Shown here: in pieces, positions 2,926 to 29,728 of the stretch
How positions within the stretch are numbered: the first letter of the stretch is position 1
Layout: each line of letters opens with the position of its first letter
Assembly: GCA_963744745.1 (NCBI GenBank)
Contig: CAVUVD010000019.1
Span: forward strand, 427,651-491,650
Direction of reading: 5' to 3'
DNA: 64,000 nt
Source: an uncultured Bacteroidota bacterium
GTDB taxonomy: Bacteria; Bacteroidota; Bacteroidia; Bacteroidales; VadinHA17
The notes under the pieces: generated by a model
Told to the model about the DNA's origin: nothing
The model's input: only the letters and a program-made list of their open reading frames with translations
Databases searched by the model: none
Position numbers and translations under genes: made by a program

Positions 2926-2998
<73 letters not shown>

Positions 2999-3093
2999 TT
3001 AAGGCTGCAAAATTAGCATAAATTATTGATAAATGCTTTGGTCACTAAAATCAAGATGATTATCTTTCGTGGCTTTTTAAAAACCAATAGATT

Positions 3094-5136: not shown

Positions 5137-5175
5137 AAGCGAGAAAGCCCGTAAGAAACGGGCTGTTGATTACTG

Positions 5176-5678: not shown

Positions 5679-8600
5679 ATGGAAAGTCAAAATCCATTAC
5701 CTGGCCAGAATCCATTTTTTTCATTTTGCAGGGGGATCACCAAGAGGAGCTTCTTACTTGTTTTTTTGTTCATTTTGATTGTTGGAGGGAATAAGGTATA
5801 TGCCCAAAAATATTGGGTTGGAGGAGCAAATGGTGCTTTTAGTGTTGCTGCAAACTGGAGTGCAAGTGTTGGCGGGGCAGGTGGAATTGGAATTCCTGTT
5901 GCCGGTGATCAGCTTGTATTTGATGGAACGGACATCGATGATGATCCTGGTTTGCAGACAGATGCGGTTACAGTCACAAATATCAGTACTCTTAGTTTAA
6001 AGTCAATAACTATTTCGAATTCATCAGATGTGACATTTGCTGCTGCTGGTCCCGTTATATTGACATTAGGACCGGCTGTGGCGCCTCCTTCAGATGCACT
6101 GGTGATTTCAGGTTCGACTTTCAATATCAGTTCGAATATTACAATTTCACTTCTGCCAATTGGTAATGCTGTTGTTGACGCTACCGGGACATTTAAATTA
6201 ACAAATGGATCCACTTTCAATATTGATGCAACAGGGGGGGGGAAAGCTGATGTGAATGGAACATTGGAAAACGCCGGCGGCACAATCGTTGCACCTGCCG
6301 GGAAACTGAGATTCAATGCAAATTCTGTTTATAATCATACCCGGGATGGTGGCTCAATACCTGTAGCTACCTGGGATCCGACATCTACAATCAAGGTCAC
6401 TGGGATAGCTGCCACTCAAATCACACCCTTTACAAACGATCAGACTTTTGGTAATTTTATATGGAACTGCCCTCTGCAGAACATCTCCCAGGATATAGTA
6501 GGTAATGCCACCATTACCGTAAACATAAAAGGCAATCTGAATATTATCAGAACTGGTTTCGATGCCCTTTACCTTGTGAACTTTGTTCAGACACCCACCC
6601 TGACTGTCGAAGGAAATCTTGTAATCGGAGACGGGGTGAATAATGCACAGCTATATACAAACGGGAGTACTAACAATACCACTGTTAATATTGGAGGAGA
6701 TCTTACAGTCAATAAAGAAGGAAGATTCCAGGTCCAGATTGGAACCACGACAGTCAATTTCGGAATTAATGGCAAGTCGGCAAATTCAAACTGGGGAGGT
6801 AACGGGACATATACCAATAACGGGATTTCTTATATAATCAGGAACCAGCCTGTTGGAAAGATAGTTAACCTTAATGGCTTCTCTTCAGGTATTATCCTGA
6901 CTGTGGGTGCTGTAACTGTAAATACGGGAGCTACCCTGAATTGCGGAACTCAGATTATAGGTGGTACAGGAGATTTCACTCTTCAGGCAGGAGCCACATT
7001 AGGTTTAGGTCACATTAATGGTATTGATGGGAACATCACAACATCAGGCACCAAAACATATAATGAAACCGGAGCAGGTACCACATTCAATTTCAATTCT
7101 GCAATATCAGGTCAGATTACCGGTTTAAATCTTCCTGCGGCAGTTACAAATCTTACAATAAGTAATGGAGTCGCCAGTGGTGTGGTTTACCTTTCGAAAT
7201 CAACAGTAGTAAACAGCACTCTTACGCTTACTGGCGGTATTCTGGCACTGCAGGGGAATGATCTTACTTTATCTGCAGGAGCTACTTTAGCAGGTAATCC
7301 GCCTTCTGTTACCAATATGGTTGCCCCGGGCATAGGGAAATTTTACAAACATTTTGCTGCTCCTGATCCTACTGCATTTACTTTCCCGATCGGAGACCTC
7401 GATCTGGTTCTTCCGGCATTAAACAATTATTCACCTGTCACACTCGATTTTACTTCTCTTACCGCAGATGGTCTGGTTGGTGTTGGTGTAATTGACGGAG
7501 TACATCCGGAAATGAATACGGGAGGAATACCTCCACATTACCTTTCAAGATACTGGCATTTTGCATCAACACTTCCCGGGAATTATATTTATAATGTAAG
7601 CACATATCTTTATGATGCGGGTGATATAACCGGTACCGAGGCAAATATGAAACTCAGCTTCTGGAACGGGTCGGCATGGTCAATCATTGCAAACAGTACA
7701 GCAGCTGGAAATATTCTGTCTATCCCGGTCGCTTCACCGTTAAGTAATATTTCAGGACCACTAAACGGGAATGTCTTTACCGGTCGTTCAGAAACCTGCA
7801 GCAGTGACACAGAACCTCCTACAATTGTTTGTCCTCCGGATGTTACTGCAAATACTTCAGATGATGGCACAGGTGATTGTGAGACAACAGTAGTTACAGG
7901 CATTCCTACTGTTGCAGATAATTGCGTGGTGGATGATGTAATTGCCCAGATTGGCGGAGTTACAATTAATCCGGTGACTTATAAATTTCCTTCAGGGATC
8001 ACTACTATAACATGGATTGTTACTGATCTTGCAGGTAATAGCGCCAATTGCAATCAGACAATCACGGTTCTGGACGATGAAGATCCGGTGATCACATGTG
8101 TCGATGTTACAAGGAATACATCTGATGACGGCGCTGGAAATTGTACAACAACATCACCGGCAATTCCTGCTAATTCAGATAATTGCATCGGCAGTACTGT
8201 TGCAGCAACAGTTGGAGGAGTGCCCATCGATCCTGGAACCTATTTATTTAGCCTGGGGACCACTTCGGTAACCTGGACAATAACTGATGCTGCAGGAAAC
8301 TCAGCTACCTGCAACCAGCAGGTTACGGTGGTTGATAACGAAGATCCAACAATCACTTGTCCTGTCGATGTAACCGTGCCGATGGCACCGGGAGTATGTA
8401 CTTCAAAAGCTGTTTTAGGCGTACCATTAACATCAGATAATTGCAGTATTGCATCCACAGTCGCACAGGCAGGTGGCATTACTATTGACCCTGCAACATA
8501 TGATTTTCCGGCCGGAACAACTATTGTAACGTGGATTGTTACTGATGGCAGCGGGAGAACTGCAAGTTGTGATCAGGATGTTACTGTAAGCGACGATGAA

Positions 8601-11600
8601 GATCCTATAATAACCTGTCCTGCAGATGTGACTGCCGCAACGTCCGACGACGGGGGGAATAATTGTAGTACAACAGTTGCTCTTGGAGTAGCAGGAGTAA
8701 CTGACAACTGCGCAGGGTTTACTGTGATTGCTCAGGTAGGTGGGGTTACGATAGATCCTGCCACATACCTGTTTCCAACAGGGATTACTGTTGTAACCTG
8801 GATAGCTACGGATGCCGACAGCAATACAGCGACCTGCACTCAGAATGTTACCGTTACTGACGATGAACCCCCTGTCGCAATAAGCAGGAATTACACAGCT
8901 GTGCTTGATGCATTTGGTAATGCCTCAATCACAACTGCTGATGTCAATAATTCATCAACAGACAATTGTGGGATTGTATCAATGACTGCAGTTCCAAATA
9001 CATTCACTATTGCAAACCTGGGACCGAATACAGTGACACTTACAGTTACTGATGCAGCAGGATTATCCGACACTGACGATTGTACTGTTACTGTTACCGG
9101 GGTGCCTCCGACGGCTTACTATTCATACCAGACCGGTACCTGGGATGACCCGAACACATGGACGAGTGATCCGGGAGGTACAACCGGTCCGGGTACCACA
9201 ATTCCAGGCGATAATGATGTGGTTGTGATACTCACAGGCAGAACTGTTACTCTTGATGCTAATGTCCCCTCGACTAATCTTGATCTTACAATCAACAGCG
9301 GAGGCATTCTTGACCTTTCAACATATGCTTTTACTGGTGCAGGAGGATTATCATCACTGGCAGGTGGTGGTATCCTGAAGCTTTCATCACCTGACTTCCC
9401 GGTCGCGGCAACTAATACATTCGTTACAACTGACGGAGGTACCACAGAGTACAACCATAACGGGGAAATGTCATCAGTACAGTCCATTTACTATAATGTT
9501 ATAATCAGAAGTAGTGGTACGGTGACTCAAAAGAATAATGTCACTATAAACGGTAATCTTGAAATCAAGCAAGGGACATTCCGGATAAATGATGCAACAT
9601 CCCAGCGCTTACAGCTCATCATCAATGGTGATGTAACAGTCGAAAATGGCTGCTCAATGACCGTAGGTACGGGTGTCACCAACTCCACAACCAACCCGCG
9701 GGGAATAAATGGAGTAACAGGAGGATTCGTCAACTATTATGAATTACAGTCTCACAGGGTTCAGATATATGGCAATTTCACGAATGACGGTACAGTACGT
9801 TTTACAAATCTGGCTTATCCTGTATACAATTTCTTTCCGCCAATAGCAGCTGGTCCTACGACAGGTTTTGCAACCGTATATTTCAATGGCGCTGCTGATA
9901 AGACATTGCTGTGTAACGGGCAGACTGATTTTTACAACATCGTTGTTGACAAGGGTACCGACCAGACATATAAATTGACCGTTAATTCAGCAGCCTATGG
10001 TAATTTCAGACTTTATGGAGCAAATAATTCAGAGGGAGAAGTAGTTGCCCCTGCAACAGATGCAAATCCATTACTTAAAAAGGCTCTGTGGATCCGCAAT
10101 GGTACGCTTGAATTGACAGGGTTGGTTATTATTCCATCATTAACTGAAGGAGCAACTGCAGGGCCTCCGTCAAGTGATTTTACAATTCCTGCAAATGGGG
10201 CATTGCTGATGAACGGTGGCGGTGTCATAATACTTGTTTCGGCTGATGATTTCAGGGAGGTCAATGGGGCTTATGGAGTCGCAGCGCCAGATAATGGGTC
10301 AATGGGAATTAACACGGGCGGTGGATCCAGTGCACTTTCCGTGATGGGTAAGATTGAGGTAAACGATGGATACCTGTCGACGAGAGAATCATCAGGTATT
10401 CTTTACTGGCCATATGCTTCTGGTCAGTTTATTCTGAACGGAGGATTTGTTGATACGAAACAATTCCATGGAGCAACAGCAAATACCAGTCTTGTATCTT
10501 ACACGCAAACTGGTGGGATGCTGGAAATAAGAGGGCGTTTTAAACGCACGCCAAATACATTTGATATTAATGGAATAAAAAATCCTCCGCTTATAACATC
10601 GAGAGTAGCAAATGGCATATCAGCTGCAGCAGGTTCTTTCAGCATTACAAACAGTGGAGGTGCAACAGCATTCTCCATGTCCAATGGTACCATAAGAATA
10701 CTTGATGTTTGTGGCACCGGCGCTACCCAGCTTGCATTCCAGGTTCTTTGTGCCCCTGCCGGAATTAATGTTACAGGTGGTACCGTTGATATAAGGCCTA
10801 CAACGGGAACCGTGCTGGCTGATGCAAATCACTTTATTAACACTACTGCACCTGTTTACAACCTGAATATTAACAGGCAGCCTGCAGATACTGCTTCGGT
10901 GAGGCTCAATACAAATCCGCTTTCAGTATTGAACAATCTGAACTTAACAAATGGAGTCTTCATTTCAAGTAATCTTAATCTGACAGTCGGCGGGAACTTC
11001 TCACTTGCCGCCGGTACTCAATATAAGCCCTGGACAAATACTACTACCTTCAATGGCACCGGTAATCAGACTCTCACAGCAAATATTGCTGCTCCATTGG
11101 CTTTTAGTAAGCTTACTATTGATAAACCTGCATCGACCTCGTTAGATCTTGCAGGCACTCAACCGGTGATAAATGTAGCCGGCGATTTCAGGCTTGTGGC
11201 GGCCACTCTTAATGATAATGGCAAAACAATAAACCTCGCAAGAAATGCATTCAACTCCGGAGTTCATGCCGGTGCAGGACGCATTGTCATGTCGGGAAAT
11301 GTCGCTCAATCTATTGATGGTAATGGTAATGGCGTATTCCAGAACCTTGAGCTGAATAATGCATCAGCCCCCGTTTCAATGATCGCCAATACAACTGTCA
11401 ATGGAAACCTGACCTTTTCACAGGACCAGGTATTTAATATCCAGACCTTTAACCTGAAGTTAAATGCAAACGCAACTATTGTTAACAGCGGAGCGCTGAG
11501 GTATATAAGATCATCAGGTAATTCAGGTGACGGAGGATTGACAAAAGATTTCACTGTCTCAAATTCTTTTACATTCCCCATTGGTGTAGGTAACTATACA

Positions 11601-14600
11601 CCTGGAAGCATTATTCTCACAGGTTCTCCGACAACAAGGGGGAATATAACTATTGTCCCTGTTAATTTTGAACATCCAAACGTTACGGCTTTCGGCAGGT
11701 CGATTTCTTATTTCTGGCGTACAAAGTCATCAGGCTTTGTGCTTGGTCCTGCCACCGCTACACATGAATATGTTTACGACCAGTCAAATGTCATCACAGG
11801 TGGCGATGTAGCTGAAGATGGCTATGTACCAGGACGTTTTTACCTTCCTACTAATTCATGGACAAAAGGTATTGCCTCTGAAGTCGATGAAAGCTCGAAT
11901 AAAATTGGAGGAGCCGGATCAGGAACTTTCCTCGTAAATACCAATTTCATCGATGGCGATTATACCGCCGGAGATGATGATGCAACAAGTCCTTTCGGAA
12001 CTCCTTCTATCTATTATAGTAGAATAAATGGTGCAGGCACGGGCAGCGGACTCTGGAATGATGTTAGTTCATGGTCAACAGATGGTGTAGCACAGCATAC
12101 CGGGGCGCCTGCAGGTACGGTGCCCGGAGGTTCAGATATTGTGATCATTGGCGGAAGAGATAGTATTTATCTTTCAAATGAAGCATTCCCTCTTCCGAGT
12201 AACATTGATCCACCGGTTACATATTTCCAGCTTGATAAGGCAGTGGTCAATTGTGCTACATTAAGGATCGAAAAAGGATCATGTCTGGATATCCAGAATA
12301 ACCCCGGAAGTAATTTCGGAATGGTACTCTCACACCCGAATGGCAATGGGAACCTGAGAGTCACAACCAGACATCCCATCACTTTTGATACACCTTATAC
12401 ATATGTGTTCCCCGGAGGTGACTTTTCAGATTTTAACGTAAATAACGGTACAACGGAATTCTACGGGATCAATCCTCAGATAAGTACAGTGACTTTCATG
12501 CCGCTGAATGCGAATTCCTATGGTACGGTGATTTTATCACCGTTAAGGGAATCGAATATATCACTGCCAAATATCAATTCAGTCACTATTTATGGAGATC
12601 TTATAACAAGAGGTTCAAACTGGGAATCATGGCTTGCTATGACATGGAATATTGCAGCATATGGTGCAATAGTACCAAAGACTGTGACAGTCAGGGGCGA
12701 TCTGCTTATCCAGGGAGGATCGTTTCTCTTTATGGGTAATGGTAATATTCAGCAGACAATATCTATTGATGGTGATGTGGTCGTTTATCCCGGTGCGGGG
12801 ATTGATATCTGGGCTCCGTCAACAGCAAGCAAAATGGCAATAGGAGGAAGCCTGATCAATAATTCAAATGACATTCCGGGCATAATCGCTCCCTGGGCGG
12901 GAAGCAGGGTAAGGTTTTATGTGACCAATAGCCAGAAAATTGATGTTGAATTCTTTGGTTCCAATAATGCTTTTATTACAAATACCATTCCTGCCGTTGG
13001 TAATGTTCCTTATACGACATTTGGAAAAGTAACGGTGAATAAAGGAAATTCACCAGCTACTACGCTTACCTGTAATGTTGGTGGATTGCTTTCAACAAAT
13101 GGAACACTTGCTTCTCCCAATGACAACTGGCTAACTCTTCAGAATGGTACACTGATATACCAGAGAACCGGAGATTTCAATATTACCGACAGTTCACAAT
13201 TTACAATATCTACTACTGCCGGCTTGACAATCAATACCCCATCGAATGTCTATATTGGGAGTGGCGCAGTGAATAACAATGATCTTATATTGAACGGAAA
13301 ACTGACAATAATAAATGGTAATGTATTTGTCGGAGCTTCTTCAGGAATCAATGTAAATAATAATGATATTGAATATACTTCGAGCGGGGCATCTGCTCTT
13401 GATATACAGGGGGGAACTTTGTTCGTCAACGGTCAGATCAGGAGGAATCCCCTTAATGCTGGCGGAGTTTTGAAATACAGCCAGTCCGGAGGTTCTGTAA
13501 CAATCAACGGGCAGGCTTCAAATGCTACTAACGCAAAACTGGAAGTCCTTAATGCCGGCAGTAATTTCACTATGTCGAATGGTATCCTTACAATAGTAAG
13601 AGGTAATGGAACTCTCATTACACCGTCTACACCATTTGGCGACTTGTACCTGAGGCCACAGACAGGAAGCGTAACAGGAGGTACAATCCTCTTCTCTCAT
13701 GGTGGAACGGGCGAACAGAACTATTTCCTCGATGCAACTATTCCTGTTAATAATTTAACAATATCCGATGCAGCAGGATTGCCTTCAGCCTTGCGGATCC
13801 TTACAAGCCCTCTGGCTGTAAACGGGAATATGACAATTAATGCAAATTGCGTTCTCAATTCAAATAATGTCAATATTACTTTCAGGGGTAATCTTATCAA
13901 TACACCCGGGCTCGCCGGCTATATATATGGCACTAACCTGACAACATTCAATGCCAGGAATAAGCCTCCATTCAACGGCATTCAGACAATTACAGGTATT
14001 ACTGATTTTTACGATCTTAATGTAAAACCCGGCACATCACTCACATTGAGTGATCCTTCAACTATTAACAGGCACCTTGCTATTGACTCAGGAATTTTTG
14101 TTCTTGGCGATAACCCTGTTCACATTAAGGGGAACCTTATTAATAACGCCAGCTACACTGATGATAATAATCCGGGAAGCGGGATAATTCTGGATGGTTC
14201 TGCTCAGCAGCAGATATCAGGAACCGGGGCTTATGCACGATTAACAATCAATAATGCGGCCGGTGCTACACTTGAAAATAGTATTACCCTTTCAGAAGAT
14301 CTCACGATGACTTCGGGGATCTTTGATATAAAGAAATATCTGCTTACTCTTGGGACGAACAGTTTAATACAGGGTGGTCCTTTCAGCGCTGCGAAGATGA
14401 TCAGCTCCGATGGCGTCTTCAGTGATGTTGGTCTCAGGAAGTTCTTCAATGCAGGGGCTATTGATTTCCTGTACCCGATTGGTACTTCAGGAAAGTATAC
14501 TCCGGCACATTTTGTTGCGTCAGCCAGTGCAACAGTCGGATCTTTAAGGGTTAATAATATAAATTCAAGACATCCTGCAGTTCTGGATCCTGCAAAAGTT

Positions 14601-17600
14601 CTTGATTATTACTGGGAGGTACAGAGTTCAGGGCTTACAGGGTTAACAGGTTCTGTTGAGCTGAATTATTATCAGGAGGATGTGGCAGGGGATGAATCAC
14701 TGTACCTTGCTGCAAGACTTTCGATACCAGGTTCAACCTGGGCAACGTACCCGGGAGTTGATCAGGCTGTTAATAAAATAACAACAAATTACGCGGCTTC
14801 TAATAACCTGAGTGGTGAGTACACCGCAGGTCTTATTGAAGCATTTTATGATGATGTTCCCGAGTTTACTTCAAATAAGAATGGTAACTGGACGGATAAG
14901 ACAATATGGACACAAACAGGAGGAGATCTCCTGCCTGAATGCCCTGATGGTGGTCCAAACGGTTTTATTGTTAATATAAATCACGTTGTTGATCTCAATG
15001 CGGATTATTGCTATGCTTACAGGACTACAATAAATAACAGGCTTAATATACCTGCAACTCATTTTGGGCATAACCTGGGTACTGTATATGGAAGCGGCAG
15101 ACTTTATCTTGAGAAGGGTGCATTTCCGGCAGGTGTTTTTACCACTTTCCTTGATTGTACCAATAATGCTACAGTTGAATATGGCGGAAACGGGACATAT
15201 ACAATTGTCGCTGACCTGTTTGACAATATTTCGAACATAATCTTCTCAGGTACAGGAACACGTGTATTACCGAACAAAGATCTCACAATCTGTAACAGGC
15301 TACTCATTGATGGAAGTACCGGAGTTACATTGGATAATAGCGTATTCAACAAGAAGCTCACTATTCTTGGTACTATCGAAAGAACAGGAACAGGTATCTT
15401 CAAGAGCGGTTCCGGAGCTGGTGCTACTGTCACCTTTGCAGGAACGGGATTACAAACGGTTGGAGGAGCAACCAGCCTTGGTAATTTCACAGGTACCAGT
15501 GCATTTAATAATCTTGAGATTAATAATTCTTCCGGTTTAAGGATAGATGATGACGGAGGAGGAGCAATTGAAGTTAAAGGTAACCTTCTGCTTACCGAGG
15601 GCTTGATTAATACAGGCCCGGGAAGGACTTTAACCATTATCAATTCTGGAATGAACTGTGTCATTCCCGCCGGAGGTAAAGCAACATCATTTATTGACGG
15701 ACCCCTGACAAAACGAATTAGTCAGTATGATAGCTTCCTTTATCCTGTTGGTATTGACCTTTCGGGTCTCAGGGTTTTAGGAAACAGAATAAGGATATCT
15801 TCAACTCAGAGCGGTCCGGACTTATGGACAGTTCAGTATAACCGGCCAAATCACGATGATGACCAGTTTACACCGCCATTGCTGGGAGTTAGCTCGCTGG
15901 AGTCCTATACTATAACCTCAGCTGCCGGGAAACAGGCAAAAGTGAGTATCAACTGGTCACCTACGACCGATGTAAATCCTGTCGTTACAGGAGGTATGGG
16001 TAATATCAGGGTAGCCTGGTTTGATACAGGAACCGGTAAGTGGGTAGGAGCAACAACAACATCTGCCGGTGATAATAATAACGGGACTGCAACAACTACT
16101 GATTTGATGACTTTCACAGGTGTTGATGAATATACTCTTGGCTCAATTACAACTCTTATTCCAAGGGCGCAATTCACGCCTACCGGACCGGTCTGTGGAT
16201 CTTCCGGAATACCTGTTACTTTTACAGCACTTGGTGCGATACCTTTTAATTACCAGCTTACATATACTGTAAACGGAGCTGCAAGACCCTCAGTCCCTGT
16301 GACTCCTGCAGATATGCCGTTCATGCTTGATACTGACGGCGATCCGGGCATTTACCAGTTAACAGGATTTACATATAATAATGGTACTGGAACCGGAGTT
16401 GTTGATGCCACAACTGTTACTGTTAATCCTGATCCTACTGTATCTGATGCGGGTGATGATCAGGCACTCTGCGGAACAACTGTTGCTATACTGGACGGGA
16501 ACGATCCTGCCCCGTTTACAGGTCTATGGAGTATTCAGAGTGGTTCAGGAGGAACAATCCTGACCCCGATGAACCGGGCAAGTCAGTTTAATGGACTGAA
16601 CGGATCATCTTATACTCTAAGATGGACCATCAGCAGCGGATCATGCACTTCCTTTGATGATGTTGTTATCAGTTTCCCGATTCAACCCGATGCTCCTGTT
16701 GCTGCTGGCGCTCAGACATTATGTGGCCCCAGCACAATCGAGGATATCGCGGCTACAGCCCCTGTTGGTTGTAACATCGACTGGTATGGGAATGAATTTG
16801 ATATTAGTCCTTTGGCTGCAGGAACATCACTGGTTTCCGGTCTGACATATTGGGCTGAGTCAGTGGGTGGTACTTGCAGAAGTCTTAACAGGACTTCCGT
16901 TACTATCACAATTAATCCTATTCCTAGTCCGGGACTTGTCGGACCACTTTCTGTATGTATTGGCTCCACCGGCAACAGATATGACACTGAAGCAGGAAAG
17001 TCAAATTATGTCTGGACTTTCACAGGTGGAAACAGGACCGCCGGAGGACTCTCAACCGACAGCTTTATAGAAGTCACATGGACCTCTGATCCTGGCACTG
17101 TAAGTATTAATTATACTGAGGGTGGATGTACTGCTGCTGCTCCTTCAACTGTAACTGTAACAGTTAAAGATGAGCCTACAATTACACTCGGAACAGATCC
17201 CTCAGTCTGTCAGGGATCATTAACGACAAATCTTACATATACTGGAACAACAGGATCCCCTAACAGATATTCACTAGTTTATGATGATCCTGCATTCACA
17301 GATAGGATAAATGTTGTTTTAGCTGGTAGTCCTATAGGCCTTAATATTCCTGCAGGTACTCCGGTTGGTGTCTATACAGCTACGCTGACTGTCTGGAATA
17401 ATGTTGATATGTGTATCAGTGGTAGCTACCCCGTCAGTATTACAGTTACGACACTTCCACAAGGTACCCTTACAGCCAACGGACCGTTCTGCGGCACCGG
17501 TGCAGGCATGCTCACCTGGACAGCAACGAGTGGTACAGGTCCATATACAGTGATATACAATGACGGAACAGCCAACCGCACAGCAAACGGAGTTGTGAGT

Positions 17601-20655: not shown

Positions 20656-21822
20656 CTGCCGACCCAACCTGGAGTTTTTACTGACTCAGATGCAACAGTA
20701 TGCCAGGGTGAAGGTGGTGTATTGTACACAGTTCCGAATGATCTTACTGTAACCTATAGCTGGAGTTACGATGGTGCAGATGCAACAATAAATGGAACCG
20801 GGAATTCGGTAACAGTTGACTTTTCCACGACAGCAACATCGGGTACTCTATCAGTGGCAGCGACAAACGGATGCGGAACAAGCACAGCAAGGACTATTGA
20901 CATCACGGTGAATCCTCTGCCAGCCCAACCTGGAGCATTCACAGCATCAGAGGCATCAGTCTGTCAGGGAGAGAACGGAGTAGAATACACTGTTCCTCTT
21001 GATGCAACTGTATCCTATAACTGGAACTATGACGGTACCGGAGCAACTATTAACGGGAGCAGTAATAGCATAACAGTTGATTTCTCGATAACTGCAACAG
21101 CCGGAACTCTTTCAGTAACAGCCACAAACGGATGTGGCACAAGTTCTGCAAGGACAATAGATATTACAATCAATCCTCTTCCCGCCCAGCCTGGAGCATT
21201 CACAGCATTCACAACACCAGTCTGCCAGGGAGAGAGTGGAGTTATATACACTGTTCCAAATGACCTTGCCGCTTCCGGTTATACATGGTCTTACAGCGGA
21301 ACAGGTGCCATAATAAATGGTACCACCAATTCTGTAACAGTTGACTTCTCAGCAACAGCAACATCTGGAACATTATCAGTCACAGCCGACAATGGTTGTG
21401 GTTCCAGCCTGGCAAGAACAATTGATATCACGGTTAACCCGCAGCCACAGGGGAGCCTTACATCTAACGGACCGTTCTGCGGCACCGGTGCAGGCATGCT
21501 CACCTGGACAGCAACGAGTGGTACAGGTCCGTATACAGTGATATACAATGACGGAACAGCCGACCGTACAGCAAATGGAGTAGTAAGCGGAACACCGTTT
21601 GCAGTGTTCACCACACCGGTCACCTCAACGACAACCTATACGCTGGTATCTGTAGAAGATGCCACGACATGTATAAGAAGTGCAGGGTTCACGGAGGCGC
21701 AGCCACAATCACCGTCAATCCTCAGCCACAGGGCAGCCTTACAGCTAACGGACCGTTCTGCGGCACCGGTGCAGGGATGCTCACCTGGACAGCAACGAGT
21801 GGTACAGGTCCGTATACAGTGA
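19192..21822 (+). CDS. giant adhesin, segment 3 (5 repeat units, 3 PLPxQPG modules, 1 unit)
   Basis: The in-frame repeat sequence runs from about 19218 to about 21694, where the same 1-nt deletion recurs. Confidence 0.6.
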   Translation: MYKKCRVHGGAATITVNPQPQGSLTANGPFCGTGAGMLTWTATSGTGPYTVIYNDGTADRTESGVVSGTPFAVFTTPVTSTTTYTLVSVEDATTCIRSAGFTVGAATITVNPQPQGSLTSNGPFCGAGAGMLTWTATSGTGPYTVIYNDGTADRTENGVVSGTPFAVFTTPVTSTTTYTLVSVEDATTCIRSAGFTVGAATITVNPQPQGSLTSNGPFCGAGAGMLTWTATSGTGPYTVIYNDGTADRTENGVVSGTPFAVFTTPVTSTTTYTLVSVEDATTCIRSAGFTVGAATITVNPQPQGSLTANGPFCGTGAGMLTWTATSGTGPYTVIYNDGTADRTENGVVSGTPFAVFTTPVTSTTTYTLVSVEDATTCIRSAGFTVGAATITVNPQPQGSLTANGPFCGTGAGMLTWTATSGTGPYTVIYNDGTADRTESGVVSGTPFAVFTTPVTSTTTYTLVSVEDATTCIRSAGFTVGAATITVNPLPTQPGVFTDSDATVCQGEGGVLYTVPNDLTVTYSWSYDGADATINGTGNSVTVDFSTTATSGTLSVAATNGCGTSTARTIDITVNPLPAQPGAFTASEASVCQGENGVEYTVPLDATVSYNWNYDGTGATINGSSNSITVDFSITATAGTLSVTATNGCGTSSARTIDITINPLPAQPGAFTAFTTPVCQGESGVIYTVPNDLAASGYTWSYSGTGAIINGTTNSVTVDFSATATSGTLSVTADNGCGSSLARTIDITVNPQPQGSLTSNGPFCGTGAGMLTWTATSGTGPYTVIYNDGTADRTANGVVSGTPFAVFTTPVTSTTTYTLVSVEDATTCIRSAGFTEAQPQSPSILSHRAALQLTDRSAAPVQGCSPGQQRVVQVRIQ
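20656..21441 (+). repeat. three ~87-aa PLP(T/A)QPG...CQGE...NGCG modules, copy 1 of a 786-bp duplicated block
   Basis: Nearly identical to 24261-25046 (offset 3605 nt). I saw only two amino-acid differences (SVAATNGCGTSTAR vs SVEATNGCGTSAAR). Confidence 0.9.
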
Positions 21823-24260
21823 TATACAATGATGGAACAGCCGACCGTACAGAAAATGGAGTAGTAAGCGGAACACCGTTTGCAGTGTTCACCACACCGG
21901 TCACCTCAACGACAACCTATACGCTTGTATCTGTAGAAGATGCCACGACATGTATAAGAAGTGCAGGGTTCACGGTAGGCGCAGCCACAATCACCGTCAA
22001 CCCTCAGCCACAGGGCAGCCTTACAGCTAACGGACCGTTCTGCGGCACCGGTGCAGGCATGCTCACCTGGACAGCAACGAGTGGTACAGGACCATATACA
22101 GTGATATACAATGATGGAACAGCCGACCGTACAGAAAATGGAGTAGTAAGCGGAACACCGTTTGCAGTGTTCACCACACCGGTCACCTCAACGACAACCT
22201 ATACGCTTGTATCGGTAGAAGATGCCACGACATGTATAAGAAGTGCAGGGTTCACGGTAGGCGCAGCCACAATCACCGTCAACCCTCAGCCACAGGGCAG
22301 CCTTACATCTAACGGACCGTTCTGCGGCACCGGTGCAGGCATGCTCACCTGGACAGCAACGAGTGGTACAGGTCCGTATACAGTGATATACAATGACGGA
22401 ACAGCCGACCGTACAGAAAATGGAGTAGTAAGCGGAACACCGTTTGCAGTGTTCACCACACCTGTCACCTCAACGACAACCTATACGCTTGTATCGGTAG
22501 AAGATGCCACGACATGTATAAGAAGTGCAGGATTCACGGTAGGCGCAGCCACAATCACCGTCAACCCTCAGCCACAGGGCAGCCTTACATCTAACGGACC
22601 GTTCTGCGGCACCGGTGCAGGCATGCTCACCTGGACAGCAACGAGTGGTACAGGTCCGTATACAGTGATATACAATGATGGAACAGCCGACCGTACAGAG
22701 AGTGGAGTAGTAAGCGGAACACCGTTTGCAGTGTTCACCACACCGGTCACCTCAACGACAACCTATACGCTTGTATCGGTAGAAGATGCCACGACATGTA
22801 TAAGAAGTGCAGGATTCACAGGAGGCGCAGCCACAATCACCGTCAACCCGCAGCCACAGGGCAGCCTTACATCTAACGGACCGTTCTGCGGCACCGGTGC
22901 AGGCATGCTCACCTGGACAGCAACGAGTGGTACAGGTCCGTATACAGTGATATACAATGACGGAACAGCCGACCGTACAGAGAGTGGAGTAGTAAGCGGA
23001 ACACCGTTTGCAGTGTTCACCACACCGGTAACCTCAACGACAACCTATACGCTTGTATCTGTAGAAGATGCCACGACATGTATAAGAAGTGCAGGGTTCA
23101 CGGTAGGCGCAGCCACAATCACCGTCAACCCTCAGCCACAGGGCAGCCTTACATCTAACGGACCGTTCTGCGGCGCCGGTGCAGGGATGCTCACCTGGAC
23201 AGCAACGAGTGGTACAGGACCATATACAGTGATATACAATGATGGAACAGCCGACCGTACAGAAAATGGAGTAGTAAGCGGAACACCGTTTGCAGTGTTC
23301 ACCACACCGGTCACCTCAACGACAACCTATACGCTTGTATCTGTAGAAGATGCCACGACATGTATAAGAAGTGCAGGGTTCACGGTAGGCGCAGCCACAA
23401 TTACCGTCAACCCTCAGCCACAGGGCAGCCTTACATCTAACGGACCGTTCTGCGGCGCCGGGGCAGGGATGCTCACCTGGACAGCAACGAGTGGTACAGG
23501 TCCGTATACAGTGATATACAATGATGGAACAGCCGACCGTACAGAAAATGGAGTAGTAAGCGGAACACCGTTTGCAGTGTTCACCACACCGGTCACCTCA
23601 ACGACAACCTATACGCTTGTATCTGTAGAAGATGCCACGACATGTATAAGAAGTGCAGGGTTCACGGTAGGCGCAGCCACAATCACCGTCAACCCTCAGC
23701 CACAGGGCAGCCTTACATCTAACGGACCGTTCTGCGGCGCCGGGGCAGGGATGCTCACCTGGACAGCAACGAGTGGTACAGGTCCATATACAGTGATATA
23801 CAATGATGGAACAGCCGACCGTACAGAAAATGGAGTAGTAAGCGGAACACCGTTTGCAGTGTTCACCACACCGGTCACCTCAACGACAACCTATACGCTT
23901 GTATCGGTAGAAGATGCCACGACATGTATAAGAAGTGCAGGATTCACGGTAGGCGCAGCCACAATCACCGTCAACCCTCAGCCACAGGGCAGCCTTACAG
24001 CTAACGGACCGTTCTGCGGCACCGGTGCAGGCATGCTCACCTGGACAGCAACGAGTGGTACAGGTCCATATACAGTGATATACAATGATGGAACAGCGGA
24101 CCGTACAGAGAGTGGAGTAGTAAGCGGAACACCGTTTGCAGTGTTCACCACACCTGTCACCTCAACGACAACCTATACACTTGTATCGGTAGAAGATGCC
24201 ACGACATGTATAAGAAGTGCAGGGTTCACGGTAGGCGCAGCCACAATAACAGTCAACCCT
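21442..24260 (+). repeat. tandem 282-bp repeat block B: 10 units
   Basis: The length 2819 nt equals 10 x 282 - 1. Units are near-identical to those of block A. Confidence 0.9.
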
Positions 24261-27200
24261 CTGCCGACCCAACCTGGAGTTTTTACTGACTCAGATGCAA
24301 CAGTATGCCAGGGTGAAGGTGGTGTATTGTACACAGTTCCGAATGATCTTACTGTAACCTATAGCTGGAGTTACGATGGTGCAGATGCAACAATAAATGG
24401 AACCGGGAATTCGGTAACAGTTGACTTTTCCACGACAGCAACATCGGGTACTCTATCAGTGGAAGCGACCAACGGATGCGGAACAAGTGCAGCAAGGACT
24501 ATTGACATCACGGTGAATCCTCTGCCAGCCCAACCTGGAGCATTCACAGCATCAGAGGCATCAGTCTGTCAGGGAGAGAACGGAGTAGAATACACTGTTC
24601 CTCTTGATGCAACTGTATCCTATAACTGGAACTATGACGGTACCGGAGCAACTATTAACGGGAGCAGTAATAGCATAACAGTTGATTTCTCGATAACTGC
24701 AACAGCCGGAACTCTTTCAGTAACAGCCACAAACGGATGTGGCACAAGTTCTGCAAGGACAATAGATATTACAATCAATCCTCTTCCCGCCCAGCCTGGA
24801 GCATTCACAGCATTCACAACACCAGTCTGCCAGGGAGAGAGTGGAGTTATATACACTGTTCCAAATGACCTTGCCGCTTCCGGTTATACATGGTCTTACA
24901 GCGGAACAGGTGCCATAATAAATGGTACCACCAATTCTGTAACAGTTGACTTCTCAGCAACAGCAACATCTGGAACATTATCAGTCACAGCCGACAATGG
25001 TTGTGGTTCCAGCCTGGCAAGAACAATTGATATCACGGTTAACCCGCAGCCACAGGGGAGCCTTACATCTAACGGACCGTTCTGCGGCACCGGTGCAGGC
25101 ATGCTCACCTGGACAGCAACAAGTGGTACAGGTCCGTATACAGTGATATACAATGACGGAACAGCCGACCGTACAGAAAATGGAGTAGTAAGCGGAACAC
25201 CGTTTGCAGTGTTCACCACACCTGTAACCTCAACAACAACCTATACGCTGGTATCTGTAGAAGATGCCACGACATGTATAAGAAGTGCAGGATTCACAGG
25301 AGGCGCAGCCACAATCACCGTCAATCCTCAGCCACAGGGCAGCCTTACAGCTAACGGACCGTTCTGCGGCACCGGTGCAGGGATGCTCACCTGGACAGCA
25401 ACGAGTGGTACAGGACCGTACACAGTGATATACAATGATGGAACAGCCGACCGTACAGCGAGTGGAGTAGTAAGCGGAACACCGTTTGCAGTGTTCACCA
25501 CACCGGTCACCTCAACGACAACCTATACGCTTGTATCTGTAGAAGATGCCACCACATGCATGAGAAATGCAGGATTCACAGGTGGTACAACCACTATAAC
25601 TGTAAATCAGGAGGTTCAGGGTAGTCTTACATCCAACGGACCGTTCTGCGGCACCGGTGCAGGCATGCTCACCTGGACAGCAACAAGTGGTACAGGACCG
25701 TATACAGTGATATACAATGACGGTACAGCTGATCGCACAGAGAGTGGAGTAGTAAGCGGGACACCATTTGCAGTGTTCACCACACCAGTCGGTTCAACGA
25801 CAACATACACGCTGATATCTGTATCAGATGCCGGATCTTGCTCCAGGAATGCGGGGTTCACGGGAGGCACAGCTACAATCACAGTGAACCCGCAGCCACA
25901 GGGCAGCCTTACAGCCAACGGACCGTTCTGCATCACAGGGGCAGGCATGCTTACCTGGACAGCTACCTCGGGTACAGGACCATTTACAGTTGTATACAAT
26001 GATGGTACAGCCGATCGTACAGAAAATGGAGTGGTAAGCGGAACCCCATTTGCAGTGTTTACAACGCCTGTTGCCTCAACGACAACCTATACACTGGTGT
26101 CAGTAACAGATGAGACCACCACATGCATTAGAAATGCGGGATTCACCGGAAATACAGCCACTATCACGGTAAACACAGTACCAACAGTCACAATAACAGA
26201 TCCCGTTCCAATATGTGCCCCATTGACGGTTGATCTCACAGCACCAGCAGTAACTTCGGGCAGCACTGCAGGTCTTACCTATACATACTGGACTGATGCA
26301 TCAGCTACAATCGTCCTTACAGGTGAGACTGCAGTAGGAGTGACGGGAACGTATTATATAAAAGGCACAGATCCTGCAACAACATGTTATTCCATGCAGC
26401 CTGTAGCAGTAATAATTAATGCTTTACCAACAGTTACAATAACTAATCCGGCATCTGTATGTGATCCATCAACAGTAGATCTTACAGCAGGTGCGGTAAC
26501 CTTAGGCAGCACTGCAGGTCTTACCTATACATATTGGACCGATGCAGCAGCGACCATTGCTCTTGCAGGAGAATCTGCCGTTGCTGTTTCCGGGACATAT
26601 TACATCAAGGGAACTGATCCAGTAACTTCTTGTTTCTCGATCCAGCCTGTTACTGTCACAATCAATCCTCTGCTACCTGTAAGTGTATCAATTACAGCGA
26701 ACAGCAATCCTGTTTGTTCCGGTGCAACTATCCAGTTTACAGCTACTCCAACTAATCAAGGTACTTCTCCTTTATACCAGTGGTTCAATGGAGCTACTCC
26801 TGTTGGCACAAATAGTTCCACATATTCCTATGTCCCGGCTGATGGGGAAAGTATAACTGTAATGCTTACATCGAGTGAAACTTGCCAGAGTGGAGGACCG
26901 GCTACGTCGAATATAATCACAACTGATGTGAATCCGGTAATTAACGTTTCAGCAGTACCCACACACATTCTTTGCAATGGGGCTTCCACAGGCGAGATAA
27001 GCATCACAGTTACCGGAGGTACTGCTCCATATTCATTTGCCTGGACGGGTACCGTAGTTAATCCGACTTCTGAAGATCAAACCGGGCTTACAGCAAGTAA
27101 TTACTCCGTAACAGTTACTGACGCTTCATCATGTAGTGTTTCAGCAAATTCTGTAATTAATCAGCCAACAGCTGTGACAGGTTCAGTAGTGTCACAGAAT

Positions 27201-28613
27201 AACATTATTGTATATGGAGAGACTAATGGCAGTGTTGAAGTGGCAGGATCCGGAGGAACACAACCTTACCAATACAGTTTAGGGTCTGGTGCATTCCAGC
27301 CATCCGGTTCATTCGGCACACTTAGCGCTGGCGATTACACAATAACAATACAGGATGCAAATATGTGTACCAGCCAGGTTTCAGTAACTATAACTCAACC
27401 ATCGGGACCCCTTTCAGGAAGTGTCACAAATCAGACTGCTGTCACCTGTTTCGGCACAAGCACCGGCACCGTTACAGTTGCTGGTTCTGGAGGTTTGGCA
27501 CCGTATATATATTCTTTAGATGGAACCAGCTGGCAGGCATCAGGACTTTTCGAGACACTTGCAAGAGGTACTTATACCGTTATAGTTAAAGATGCTGCAA
27601 ATACTACTGTTAATGTTCCGGTAACAATCTTCTCACCGACAGAGCCGGTAGGTGCAATAATAAGCGCAAAGAGTCCGGTCCTGTGCTTTGGAGGAAATAC
27701 AGGTAGTACAACGATAAGCGGAACAGGAGGAATAGCGCCTTACAGGTATCGTATTGACGGTGGTGATTATCAGACCTCAGATTCGTTTGGTAATCTTATT
27801 GCCGGAACTCATACAGTGACTGTGATTGATACCAAACTCTGTACATTCAATATAGATGTAGTAATTGAAGAGCCTACACGCTTAACAGGCAGTATAACAA
27901 CTCTGAACAATGTCAGTTGTTACGGGGCTGGAGATGCTGAAGTTACCGCTGCAGGATCCGGTGGAGTGAATCCTTATGAATTCAGTTTCAATGGAGGAAC
28001 ATACCAGGCATCAGGTGGTTTCACCGGACTTTTACCTGGAAATCATTCAATTACAATCAGGGATGCTAACCAATGTACAGTAAATGTTCCTGTTATCGTA
28101 ACAGAACCCGATGCTCTTGTGATAACATCGACCGTGACCGATATTTTATGCCCTGATGATCCAAGTGGCTCAATCAGTCTTACTATAACTGGCGGAACTC
28201 AACCATACAATGTTATCTGGGCGGATGGAGTTACCGGAGCTAACAGGACAGGAATCACTGATAGTGAATACAGTGCTGTTGTAACAGATCAGAATGGCTG
28301 CGCAGGATCACTGACCTCTACAGTTGGAGTGATCGGATCAGAAGATTGTCTTGAGATACCTGAGATTATCACCCCGAATGGTGATGGTTATAATGACACA
28401 TGGAAGATCCGGAACATTGATATGTTCCCTGATGCCGAAGTTGTGGTCTTTAACAGGTGGGGAAAAAAGGTGTTCGAATCGAGAAACGTACTTGCTGATC
28501 AATGGGATGGAACGGTCAAGGGGGAACCACTGCCAACTGATTCGTATCATTACATTCTTGATCTTAATAATGGATCAAAAGCAAAAACCGGAATAATTAG
28601 TATTATTAAATAG
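21669..28613 (+). CDS. giant adhesin, segment 4, carrying SprB-type repeats and a T9SS type B C-terminal sorting domain
   Basis: 2314 aa. It contains 9 repeat units, 3 PLPxQPG modules, 4 diverged units and two ~82-aa modules. SprB-type repeats lie at about 26940-28330 (CNGASTGEISITVTGGTAPYSF, CFGTSTGTVTVAGSGGLAPYIY and others). The C-terminus is ITPNGDGYNDTWKIRN..FNRWGKKVFES..WDGT..LPTDSYHYIL. Confidence 0.85.
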   Translation: MYKKCRVHGGAATITVNPQPQGSLTANGPFCGTGAGMLTWTATSGTGPYTVIYNDGTADRTENGVVSGTPFAVFTTPVTSTTTYTLVSVEDATTCIRSAGFTVGAATITVNPQPQGSLTANGPFCGTGAGMLTWTATSGTGPYTVIYNDGTADRTENGVVSGTPFAVFTTPVTSTTTYTLVSVEDATTCIRSAGFTVGAATITVNPQPQGSLTSNGPFCGTGAGMLTWTATSGTGPYTVIYNDGTADRTENGVVSGTPFAVFTTPVTSTTTYTLVSVEDATTCIRSAGFTVGAATITVNPQPQGSLTSNGPFCGTGAGMLTWTATSGTGPYTVIYNDGTADRTESGVVSGTPFAVFTTPVTSTTTYTLVSVEDATTCIRSAGFTGGAATITVNPQPQGSLTSNGPFCGTGAGMLTWTATSGTGPYTVIYNDGTADRTESGVVSGTPFAVFTTPVTSTTTYTLVSVEDATTCIRSAGFTVGAATITVNPQPQGSLTSNGPFCGAGAGMLTWTATSGTGPYTVIYNDGTADRTENGVVSGTPFAVFTTPVTSTTTYTLVSVEDATTCIRSAGFTVGAATITVNPQPQGSLTSNGPFCGAGAGMLTWTATSGTGPYTVIYNDGTADRTENGVVSGTPFAVFTTPVTSTTTYTLVSVEDATTCIRSAGFTVGAATITVNPQPQGSLTSNGPFCGAGAGMLTWTATSGTGPYTVIYNDGTADRTENGVVSGTPFAVFTTPVTSTTTYTLVSVEDATTCIRSAGFTVGAATITVNPQPQGSLTANGPFCGTGAGMLTWTATSGTGPYTVIYNDGTADRTESGVVSGTPFAVFTTPVTSTTTYTLVSVEDATTCIRSAGFTVGAATITVNPLPTQPGVFTDSDATVCQGEGGVLYTVPNDLTVTYSWSYDGADATINGTGNSVTVDFSTTATSGTLSVEATNGCGTSAARTIDITVNPLPAQPGAFTASEASVCQGENGVEYTVPLDATVSYNWNYDGTGATINGSSNSITVDFSITATAGTLSVTATNGCGTSSARTIDITINPLPAQPGAFTAFTTPVCQGESGVIYTVPNDLAASGYTWSYSGTGAIINGTTNSVTVDFSATATSGTLSVTADNGCGSSLARTIDITVNPQPQGSLTSNGPFCGTGAGMLTWTATSGTGPYTVIYNDGTADRTENGVVSGTPFAVFTTPVTSTTTYTLVSVEDATTCIRSAGFTGGAATITVNPQPQGSLTANGPFCGTGAGMLTWTATSGTGPYTVIYNDGTADRTASGVVSGTPFAVFTTPVTSTTTYTLVSVEDATTCMRNAGFTGGTTTITVNQEVQGSLTSNGPFCGTGAGMLTWTATSGTGPYTVIYNDGTADRTESGVVSGTPFAVFTTPVGSTTTYTLISVSDAGSCSRNAGFTGGTATITVNPQPQGSLTANGPFCITGAGMLTWTATSGTGPFTVVYNDGTADRTENGVVSGTPFAVFTTPVASTTTYTLVSVTDETTTCIRNAGFTGNTATITVNTVPTVTITDPVPICAPLTVDLTAPAVTSGSTAGLTYTYWTDASATIVLTGETAVGVTGTYYIKGTDPATTCYSMQPVAVIINALPTVTITNPASVCDPSTVDLTAGAVTLGSTAGLTYTYWTDAAATIALAGESAVAVSGTYYIKGTDPVTSCFSIQPVTVTINPLLPVSVSITANSNPVCSGATIQFTATPTNQGTSPLYQWFNGATPVGTNSSTYSYVPADGESITVMLTSSETCQSGGPATSNIITTDVNPVINVSAVPTHILCNGASTGEISITVTGGTAPYSFAWTGTVVNPTSEDQTGLTASNYSVTVTDASSCSVSANSVINQPTAVTGSVVSQNNIIVYGETNGSVEVAGSGGTQPYQYSLGSGAFQPSGSFGTLSAGDYTITIQDANMCTSQVSVTITQPSGPLSGSVTNQTAVTCFGTSTGTVTVAGSGGLAPYIYSLDGTSWQASGLFETLARGTYTVIVKDAANTTVNVPVTIFSPTEPVGAIISAKSPVLCFGGNTGSTTISGTGGIAPYRYRIDGGDYQTSDSFGNLIAGTHTVTVIDTKLCTFNIDVVIEEPTRLTGSITTLNNVSCYGAGDAEVTAAGSGGVNPYEFSFNGGTYQASGGFTGLLPGNHSITIRDANQCTVNVPVIVTEPDALVITSTVTDILCPDDPSGSISLTITGGTQPYNVIWADGVTGANRTGITDSEYSAVVTDQNGCAGSLTSTVGVIGSEDCLEIPEIITPNGDGYNDTWKIRNIDMFPDAEVVVFNRWGKKVFESRNVLADQWDGTVKGEPLPTDSYHYILDLNNGSKAKTGIISIIK
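24261..25046 (+). repeat. three PLPxQPG modules, copy 2
   Basis: See 20656-21441. Confidence 0.9.
25047..26177 (+). repeat. tandem repeat block C: 4 units, progressively diverged
   Basis: Same 94-aa unit with visible divergence (NQEVQGSL, PVGSTTTYTLISVSDAGSCSRNAG, PFTVVYNDG). One unit has an extra codon (DETTTC). Confidence 0.85.
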
Positions 28614-28634
28614 TAATATTGAAGACGATATAAT

Positions 28635-29633
28635 ATGAGATATATAAGGAAGTTACTGCCGGCAGCAATCTTCTGTATCATATCTGGCACAGTGTTCTCA
28701 CAACAAGTGCCAATGTACAGCCAATATATTATGAACGGGTTTCTTGTAAATCCCTCATTTGCCGGCCGTGATGGTTATACGTCGATTAATCTCACGGTGA
28801 GGCAACAATGGTTGGGAATGGATGGCGCGCCTGGAACATTTGCGGCCAGCTTTCAGACACGTTTATTGAGGAATAGTTATATTTCGAAGTCAACTTCAGT
28901 CAGGAAGAATATAGTAAAACCAACACGCGGCAGCAAGGTTGGTCTTGGCGGTTATGTTTTCAATGATCAGAATGGGGCAATGCGAAGAACGGGTTTTCAT
29001 GGCGCCTATGCATATCATATCCAGATGGGCCAGACAGGAGGTTATCCTAATGATCTTGCCCTTGGATTGTCACTCTCAGCATACCAGTTCTCGGTCAATA
29101 CTGAAGGTAGAATATATGACCCGGATGATCCATTGCTCAATACATACGACAGGAGGGTCTTTATACCTGATTTCAATTTTGGCGCAAGTTTCACAACCGC
29201 ACGGTACTATGCAGGTATAGCAATGACCAACCTTTTCAGGGGTGGCCTGTTTTTTGCCGATTCTGCAAATAGTAAAACAGAGCTGGGTAATTTCTATATC
29301 ACAGGAGGGATGAAATTCCCGATCACGGCGGATTGGGTTTTGGAGCCTGCAGCTTATATCCGGGCGTCTGATATGCTGTTCAAATCACTTCAGATGGACC
29401 TCACTGCAAGGATGTTCTATAAGGAAGACTACTGGGCCGGGCTTTCATTCCGGACCGCCAATGCAATAATATTAATGGGAGGATTAAAATATGACAGATT
29501 CTATTTCGCGTATGCCAGTGATTTTGCTCTTACCGACATAAGAAAAGCGCGTACACTCGGGACTCACGAGATAACACTTGCTGTCAAATTTGGTGAAAGC
29601 GCAAGAAGGTACAGGTGGATCACACCTTTCTGA
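28635..29633 (+). CDS. PorP/SprF family type IX secretion system membrane protein
   Basis: Signal peptide, then QQVPMYSQYIMNGFLVNPSFAG, which is the typical PorP/SprF N-terminus. It lies 21 nt downstream of the type B CTD cargo gene. Confidence 0.85.
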   Translation: MRYIRKLLPAAIFCIISGTVFSQQVPMYSQYIMNGFLVNPSFAGRDGYTSINLTVRQQWLGMDGAPGTFAASFQTRLLRNSYISKSTSVRKNIVKPTRGSKVGLGGYVFNDQNGAMRRTGFHGAYAYHIQMGQTGGYPNDLALGLSLSAYQFSVNTEGRIYDPDDPLLNTYDRRVFIPDFNFGASFTTARYYAGIAMTNLFRGGLFFADSANSKTELGNFYITGGMKFPITADWVLEPAAYIRASDMLFKSLQMDLTARMFYKEDYWAGLSFRTANAIILMGGLKYDRFYFAYASDFALTDIRKARTLGTHEITLAVKFGESARRYRWITPF

Positions 29634-29728
29634 TTTTTTTTCAACTATCAGTGAAATACTCAGATAATTGATGATTGATAGTAAAATGAGTCATCCTAAA
29701 GAGAGTCATCTTACTCATATACACTTTT

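Follow-up and report, generated by a model that had tools for sequence, protein, structure and literature searches.

A giant type B T9SS adhesin gene beside a cysteine-free PorP/SprF-family carrier in an uncultured sediment Bacteroidales, probably intact despite four frame lesions in the assembly

The window analysed here, the whole 64-kb (64,000-nucleotide) stretch of contig CAVUVD010000019.1, derives from a freshwater-sediment metagenome assembly of an uncultured Bacteroidales bacterium and carries a giant adhesin gene followed directly by a gene of the PorP/SprF family. The adhesin gene is displayed in this assembly as four open reading frames (ORFs) and a hidden segment of 24 codons in frame 1. 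Its ORFs and modules, including immunoglobulin-like (Ig-like) modules and a sorting domain of the T9SS (type IX secretion system), are given below in nucleotides (nt) and, where applicable, in amino acids (aa) of the read-through product.

5679..28613, plus strand: whole giant adhesin gene, 7,645 codons in read-through
5679-18143, plus strand: ORF1, 4154 aa, frame 0
18143-19345, plus strand: ORF2, 400 aa, frame 2
19192-21822, plus strand: ORF3, 876 aa, frame 1
21669-28613, plus strand: ORF4, 2314 aa, frame 0
28635-29633, plus strand: PorP/SprF-family gene, 332 aa, starting 21 nt past the ORF4 stop
5679..5804, plus strand, aa 1-42: putative signal peptide, recognised by eye (long n-region, hydrophobic SFLLVFLFILIVGG, then VYA/QK)
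5805..7778, plus strand, aa ~43-700: first region rich in Gly, Asn and Thr (G/N/T-rich), with short beta-strands in the AlphaFold2 model, beta-solenoid-like
7779..9098, plus strand, aa 701-1140: roughly five HYR-like modules that recur every ~87 aa (Pfam HYR and self-comparison)
9126..16178, plus strand, aa ~1150-3500: second G/N/T-rich region, ~2,350 aa, with weak internal repeats
16356..17450, plus strand, aa ~3560-3924: Cys-containing Ig-like modules of the Ig_7 type (Pfam Ig_7 at ORF1 aa 3670-3747, and sequence)
17451..26174, plus strand, aa 3925-6833: array of a 282-nt (94-aa) unit, 25 full units and one partial, with 96-97% identity among most copies
20653..21438, plus strand: first PKD_6 triplet, within the array (Pfam PKD_6, three stretches)
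24258..25043, plus strand: second PKD_6 triplet, nearly identical to the first (Pfam PKD_6, three stretches), a member of the higher-order repeat
26175..26945, plus strand, aa ~6834-7088: three Cys-containing Ig-like modules after the array, from sequence
26940..28340, plus strand, aa ~7089-7555: six SprB-type repeats with a period of ~78 aa (Pfam SprB, PF13573; GGxxPY in each)
28350..28610, plus strand, aa ~7559-7645: T9SS type B C-terminal sorting domain (CTD) (TIGR04131; CHU_C, PF13585)

When the segments were stitched by unit register, the gene yielded a 7,645-aa product with zero stop codons. This bears out an earlier reading made from the DNA alone (the sequence-only reading), in which four head-to-tail ORFs would read through as about 7640 codons; the ORF map was confirmed, as was the PorP/SprF-family gene placed 21 nt downstream. 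The reading frame is interrupted in the given assembly, which contains four frame lesions from 18134 to 21694. The clean stretches comprise 12.4 kb of ORF1 and 7 kb of ORF4, and open frames of such length, together with a 25-copy array, are far beyond chance.

Orthologous loci linked the two ends of the gene. PorP orthologues with 64-87% identity are present in at least 80 species of Bacteroidales metagenome-assembled genomes (MAGs), and at nearly all of these loci a long ORF ends just upstream of PorP. Contigs of short-read MAGs typically break off 2-3 kb upstream of PorP, which is what repeat-rich genes would lead one to expect, and the orthologue proteins in databases are contig-truncated, with 1,573 aa at most. 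At three loci (L012, L026 and L028), a single ORF, at least 9.9 kb long and without a break, ends just before PorP. It contains a homologue of ORF1 aa 1436-3932 (55-61% identity) and, in the same frame, a homologue of the ORF4 C-terminus (46-49% identity) with SprB repeats and CHU_C. Because these loci carry both homologues in one same-frame ORF, ORF1 and ORF4 read as parts of one gene.

The same comparison indicated which parts of the protein are shared. The second G/N/T-rich region is the best-conserved part, with 55-61% identity to the same three loci. Because the N-terminal 700 aa has distant relatives only (up to 39% identity), the passenger is seen to differ among species, and the CTD and PorP are conserved. 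The 94-aa unit was found in none of the 80 orthologous loci; the 8.7-kb array is a lineage-specific expansion. As a separate observation, the most similar PorP (87%) lies at locus L003 (JBLNAO010000098.1), on a contig in a bin labelled Chloroflexota; the contig was probably binned or labelled wrongly, since PorP and the T9SS are a Bacteroidota trait.

Searches with profile hidden Markov models (HMMs) matched HYR, Ig_7, PKD_6, SprB, CHU_C/TIGR04131 and PorP_SprF/TIGR03519, all above curated cut-offs. The sequence-only reading had proposed such an annotation for HYR, the SprB repeat and a TIGR04131-type CTD, and all three were recovered. Its order of elements held for the elements that it named; it had missed that about 650 aa of G/N/T-rich sequence also precedes the HYR-like modules and that the PKD_6 triplets interrupt the array. 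At the N-terminus, AlphaFold2 placed a helix at residues 13-38 of the putative signal peptide. Pfam HYR matched ORF1 with 56 bits in three stretches, and self-comparison showed the HYR-like modules to be 45-55% identical to one another. PKD_6, with three stretches each, and Ig_7 were matched in ORF3 and in ORF4. Towards the C-terminus, the SprB repeats scored 90.5 bits in six stretches and carry six GGxxPY motifs. The type B CTD scored 73.8 bits with TIGR04131 (cut-off 35) and 84.7 bits with CHU_C (cut-off 27) at ORF4 aa 2229-2312 of 2314.

A beta-helix-like fold is plausible for the G/N/T-rich regions. The AlphaFold2 model of residues 1-700 had a mean confidence score (pLDDT) of 74.5 with regularly spaced strands of 3-6 residues, and nearly all of its top PDB matches were right-handed beta-helix proteins, including Ag43, EspP, Hbp, tailspikes and PL6 lyases, at non-significant E values of 0.2 or above. 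One distant N-terminal homologue is annotated as an autotransporter-associated beta strand repeat (PATR) protein; PATR itself gave no Pfam match in the window protein.

The 94-aa unit, which the sequence-only reading could not name, can now be described as an Ig-like beta-sandwich from a family that is widespread and akin to Pfam Ig-like_POM152 and Ig_7. Structure prediction of one unit, suggested as a check by that reading, gave a seven-strand beta-sandwich in AlphaFold2 with a pLDDT of 97. Its best solved fold match was the Pom152 Ig-like repeat 5tvz (E = 4.7e-3, template modelling (TM) score 0.53); FN3, BIg and PKD domains of a generic kind came next, those of MpIBP and SiiE among them. The window unit matched no Pfam model up to E = 1. 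Among 45 members of the unit family, 16 matched PF24312 Ig-like_POM152 (best E 1.8e-9) and four matched Ig_7; because of these relatives, and despite the null result of the unit itself, the unit is read as an Ig-like module of the Ig-like_POM152/Ig_7 superfamily, in a subfamily without a model of its own. The likeness to these Pfam families lies in the matching family members, in the best structure match and in the co-occurrence with Ig_7, PKD_6 and CHU_C, and the difference in the missing match of the window unit itself.

An exhaustive search of representatives found the unit in 558 proteins, with 1 to ~34 copies each, whereas a word-indexed search with one unit had returned five fragments only. 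Individual copies from unrelated proteins frequently share 60-80% identity. The sampled unit-bearing proteins also contain Ig_7, PKD_6, CHU_C and PATR, and other T9SS cargo among them carries arrays of 8-13 units. The consensus PxPQGSLxxNGxxC...GTGPxTxxYNDG...TTTYTLVSVTDAxxC...ATITVN includes an invariant Cys14 and a nearly invariant Cys78, and the subfamily is marked by the tightly conserved signature PLPQGSLTANGPFC...YNDG...TTTYTLVSV. The unit is a widespread and strongly conserved Ig-like module that current Pfam models miss.

By Tandem Repeats Finder and an ungapped scan, the 282-nt unit runs from 17449 to ~26170 in the window, with 94-97% identity among most copies. The count of 25 copies made by the sequence-only reading was confirmed for full units, with the addition of one partial unit of 41 aa. 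The array is ordered as two units, the partial unit and nine further units, three PKD_6, ten units, three PKD_6 and four units, with a higher-order period of 3,605/3,606 nt and exact matches of up to 631 nt. The collapsed PKD contig had a short-read depth of ~2.6x that of single-copy sequence. Short-read depth was not used for the unit copy number, for which it gave inconsistent values (~11x in one collapsed contig of sequencing run X1, 30-70x summed in runs X2 and X3). Variation among the units is mostly synonymous in the unit register: 31 of 43 variable nucleotide columns fall at codon position 3 of the unit register, and pairwise codon differences comprise 1,431 synonymous versus 480 non-synonymous changes, with the units in the 'wrong' frame included.

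Alignment of the units located four frame lesions, all inside 3.6 kb of the most repetitive part of the array. The sequence-only reading had implied three breaks; it had overlooked a frame-1 segment at 18136-18207, hidden between ORF1 and ORF2. The lesions are listed here with a split housekeeping gene of the same window that served as a control.

18134/18135, plus strand: lesion a, unit position 122 joined to 23, a 100-nt partial duplication; frame 0 to 1
18208, plus strand: lesion b, extra A in GGACCG[A]TACACAG; frame 1 to 2
~19216 (19216..19217), plus strand: lesion c, 1 nt missing in TTCACGG-AGGCGC; frame 2 to 1
~21693 (21693..21694), plus strand: lesion d, missing base as in c; frame 1 to 0
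36928-38884, minus strand: dnaK (Hsp70), split into two overlapping ORFs by a break at 38062

Lesions c and d share an identical context of 187 nt. Because the four lesions sum to +99 nt, ORF1 and ORF4 agree in frame, which explains the shared frame of first and last segments recorded by the sequence-only reading. Programmed ribosomal frameshifting was rejected as a source of the breaks: none of the lesions has a slippery heptamer, and they differ in kind (one duplication of 100 nt, one +1 insertion and two -1 deletions).

Logan short-read contigs, in which rare variants are dropped and repeats are collapsed, were the sole read evidence. The population in run X1 is nearly identical to the window, with 2 single-nucleotide polymorphisms (SNPs) and 0 indels over 12 kb of ORF1. 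The two halves of dnaK match Hsp70 profile positions 1-263 and 258-598 and are separated by one extra base, GAGGCT[A]GCCGAA, at 38062. This base is missing from the X1 contigs, which are otherwise identical over that contig, and from the X2 contigs; across 20 kb of unique sequence it is the sole indel, compared with 31 SNPs. Because the dnaK indel is absent from the short-read contigs of both runs, the assembly carries consensus indel errors, the extra dnaK base among them.

For lesions c and d, every contig across 19215-19217 in X1, X2 and X3 contains an extra A, G or T, which correspond to three intact unit variants; the deletion allele was not present in any crossing contig of these runs. 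At lesion b, the extra A is missing from the X1 and X3 contigs placed at 18208, and the junction of lesion a at 18134/5 is crossed by no short-read contig. None of the four lesions was thus seen in a short-read contig; the contig results for a and b suggest error, non-conclusively. Contigs of X2, X3 and X4 with a normal unit start before 18135 were rejected as proof against lesion a, because they carry a single mismatch and could be placed just as well on units 19241, 21718 and 25324. Together with the mainly synonymous variation among units and the single-ORF orthologues, these data make it most likely that the four lesions are consensus errors of a long-read metagenome assembly within a near-identical array, and the gene is probably intact in the cell. 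The claim of the sequence-only reading that this is one gene gained support from the single-ORF orthologues, from the confinement of the breaks to the near-identical array and from the dnaK indel error of the same assembly. More generally, where a giant repeat gene looks pseudogenised in a long-read MAG, a housekeeping control, here the frameshifted dnaK, should be consulted before the breaks are interpreted.

In a separate observation, the orthologous giant adhesin genes at seven other loci (L015, L027, L037, L042, L045, L049 and L021) are displayed as 2-4 abutting ORFs in different frames, mostly in long-read MAGs. It seems that genes of this class repeatedly suffer frame breaks in assembly.

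The downstream gene is a full-length member of its family. The partner matched TIGR03519 with 214.7 bits (cut-off 90.55) over profile positions 10-292 of 292, and PF11751 with E = 1.5e-61 over positions 2-272 of 273. The assignments proposed earlier for the type B CTD and for PorP/SprF both passed curated thresholds. Its only cysteine is residue 14, inside the signal peptide, which leaves the mature protein cysteine-free. The C-tail ends ...KFGESARRYRWITPF, with no Cys-X-Cys of the SprF type, and the same cysteine-free tail was found in 18 of 18 orthologues inspected. In known systems, a dedicated PorP/SprF-like carrier receives substrates with a type B CTD from the T9SS translocon and remains bound to them on the surface (PMC9143113). 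The carrier gene usually lies beside the substrate gene, and the pairs are either track-coupled or static (PMC12618676). In the Flavobacterium johnsoniae protein SprF, a Cys-X-Cys in the C-tail, invariant among close SprF homologues, forms a disulfide with GldK that is needed for gliding and dispensable for export (PMC12635249). Because the partner in the window is without the C-tail cysteines that couple SprF to the GldK track, static anchoring of the adhesin is more likely than propulsion for gliding. A cysteine-free carrier tail may offer a simple sequence criterion for telling probably static carriers from track-coupled, SprF-like ones.

These features would fit the following course, in which we infer secretion, surface anchoring and adhesion for the window protein. 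A Sec signal peptide would direct the protein to the periplasm, and the PorP/SprF-family beta-barrel encoded 21 nt downstream would carry it out of the translocon and retain it on the outer membrane. The two beta-solenoid-like G/N/T-rich regions and the HYR modules would form a distal, probably ligand-binding part, projected by a long stalk of ~25 near-identical Ig-like units, two PKD_6 triplets and six SprB repeats. The roles of stalk and binding end are proposed for the passenger modules because of the analogy with giant repeat adhesins. Among these, MpIBP, the ice-binding adhesin of Marinomonas primoryensis, and Salmonella SiiE likewise have dozens of near-identical tandem Ig-like stalk domains of ~100 aa, and their structures 4kdv, 2yn3 and 2yn5 were among the fold matches of the unit, weakly (TM ~0.5, E of at least 0.07). 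By contrast, MpIBP and SiiE depend on type I secretion and have Ca-binding BIg domains, whereas the window protein would take the T9SS route and has a conserved Cys14...Cys78 pair in its unit.

Closer parallels to the carrier arrangement are the static pairs Fjoh_3952/Fjoh_3951 of F. johnsoniae and PG1035/PorP(/PorE) of Porphyromonas gingivalis, in which the cargo is bound to a PorP-like barrel off the gliding track (PMC12618676, PMC9143113). The same behaviour is predicted for the window protein from its cysteine-free partner, and the cargos of these static pairs are much smaller. We accordingly read 5679-28613 as one gene for a surface adhesin of ~7,600 aa that is carried by PorP, intact in the cell and static rather than gliding, with a probability of roughly 0.7 (0.72). 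This reading adds a well-documented case, from an uncultured clade of sediment Bacteroidales, of a giant T9SS adhesin of type B accompanied by its cognate PorP-like carrier.

Several points weigh against it. Core T9SS and gliding genes are not within the 64-kb window. The static assignment follows from one missing motif, characterised only in F. johnsoniae, and the beta-helix assignment from a medium-confidence model with non-significant fold matches. Among RNA runs, none contains the locus. Given the nature of the short-read contigs, lesion alleles missing from them do not amount to proof, and the contigs placed at 18135-18208 could derive from other units. The shared 187-nt context of lesions c and d is also expected from a real mutation copied by recombination, and lesion a, as a 100-nt partial duplication, is atypical of a single-base consensus error.

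These last two observations also speak for the possibility that the lesions of the given assembly are real and mark a very recently inactivated pseudogene, of which ORF1 alone would be made and, without the CTD, neither secreted nor anchored: the context common to c and d fits a deletion spread by unequal recombination or gene conversion, and lesion a is a structural junction. We consider such inactivation unlikely. Read in unit register, the downstream sequence is free of stop codons, with the SprB/CTD part undamaged throughout; changes among the units are mainly synonymous; the deletion allele was unseen in crossing short-read contigs of three runs with the locus; and an indel of proven type lies in the essential dnaK of the same assembly.

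A broader proposal joins several of the above results, namely that the SprB repeats, the type B CTD and the cysteine-free PorP form a static anchoring platform common to the clade of uncultured sediment Bacteroidales, with at least 80 MAG species, that passengers are swapped and expanded between species, that the 8.7-kb array of a Pom152-like Ig unit was inserted here and that, with real lesions, the adhesin is turned off or varied as the array rearranges. Taken with all of its parts, we regard this proposal as doubtful and give it little weight.

In F. johnsoniae, the operon is laid out as sprC-sprD-sprB-sprF. The window gene could in principle be genuinely orthologous to sprB, its product being a mobile gliding adhesin that an SprF-like partner pulls along the helical GldJKN track. 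Both are giant repetitive surface proteins with a Sec signal peptide (putative here), SprB repeats beside a TIGR04131 CTD, and a PorP/SprF gene immediately downstream, which is the arrangement of sprB-sprF (PMC9143113). The Cys-X-Cys that bonds SprF to GldK, needed for gliding and invariant in close SprF homologues, is missing in the partner, which is cysteine-free beyond its signal peptide here and has the same tail in the inspected orthologues. In place of sprC and sprD, a tRNA-Val and an unrelated ORF lie upstream of the adhesin gene. The window protein has only six SprB repeats, and the greater part of its passenger has no relation to SprB, being beta-solenoid-like, HYR, PKD_6 and the Ig-like array. 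A role in gliding is thus distinctly improbable, and of the gliding or adhesion filament proposed by the sequence-only reading, the SprB-like type B adhesin stands and the gliding role does not, given the cysteine-free partner and the upstream region without sprC/sprD.

A biological on/off switch, in which the array recombines or slips often and in-frame and out-of-frame alleles coexist (phase variation), would account for the position of every lesion within a recombination-prone array, for short-read contigs that are in-frame only where the assembly is out-of-frame, and for the recurrence of split ORFs at orthologous loci of other MAGs. It is very improbable: no lesion lies in a simple-sequence tract or in a homopolymer longer than 3 nt, recombination by unit length is frame-neutral (282 is a multiple of 3), the split ORFs occur mostly in long-read assemblies, and the dnaK control indicates consensus error. 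Finally, four independent genes with merely common domain types, which mechanical ORF calling would propose from four ORFs with an in-frame start codon in each, can be dismissed as already contradicted, since ORF2, ORF3 and ORF4 begin mid-unit without a signal peptide, the CTD is absent from ORF1, ORF2 and ORF3, the ORF overlaps coincide exactly with the shifts in repeat register, and the orthologues are single ORFs.

The preferred reading, of one intact and static adhesin gene, is set among the following further features.

5175-5250, minus strand: tRNA-Val, upstream of the adhesin gene
29613..29641, plus strand: small hairpin with a T-run at the end of the PorP gene (consensus scan, sequence)
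34440-36077, minus strand: S8 subtilase, a T9SS type A cargo by its Por_Secre_tail sorting domain

The other upstream neighbours are an unassigned 188-aa ORF on the minus strand and a class II fructose-bisphosphate aldolase. The hairpin and T-run are possibly the terminator of the operon. By its sorting domain, the S8 subtilase counts as independent, indirect evidence for use of the T9SS by the organism.

Across the whole window, an Rfam scan returned two tRNAs only. Upstream of the adhesin gene, beside a tRNA-Lys, an FRG-domain protein (564-1457) and a lone ABC-type ATPase (2259-2918; weak AAA_21/AbiEii-like match) may form a small defence-like pair. Of the 31 SNPs that separate the window from the X1 population, 17 fall within 2.3 kb at 45287-47622 (ribBA / lptF-lptG region), a cluster that suggests a recombination tract between strains. 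The window and the X1 contigs part at 48389 and 48432, where the populations differ in structure; just downstream, a TonB-dependent receptor ORF at 48519-49205 stops after the CarboxypepD_reg and Plug domains (228 aa). This looks like the border of an inserted island. From ~49200 to 64000, the GC content is low, from 37% down to 26%, and this segment looks like a mobile or defence island. It contains two HTH_17 (excisionase-like) ORFs, an N-terminally truncated DUF3987 ORF (profile positions 168-362 only), an AbiEi/AbiEii toxin-antitoxin pair (52435-54041), a type I HsdM methylase (54094-56205), an IS1595-type zinc-ribbon fragment, and a cluster of radical-SAM/SPASM, SDR (short-chain dehydrogenase/reductase) and methyltransferase genes (57912-63588).

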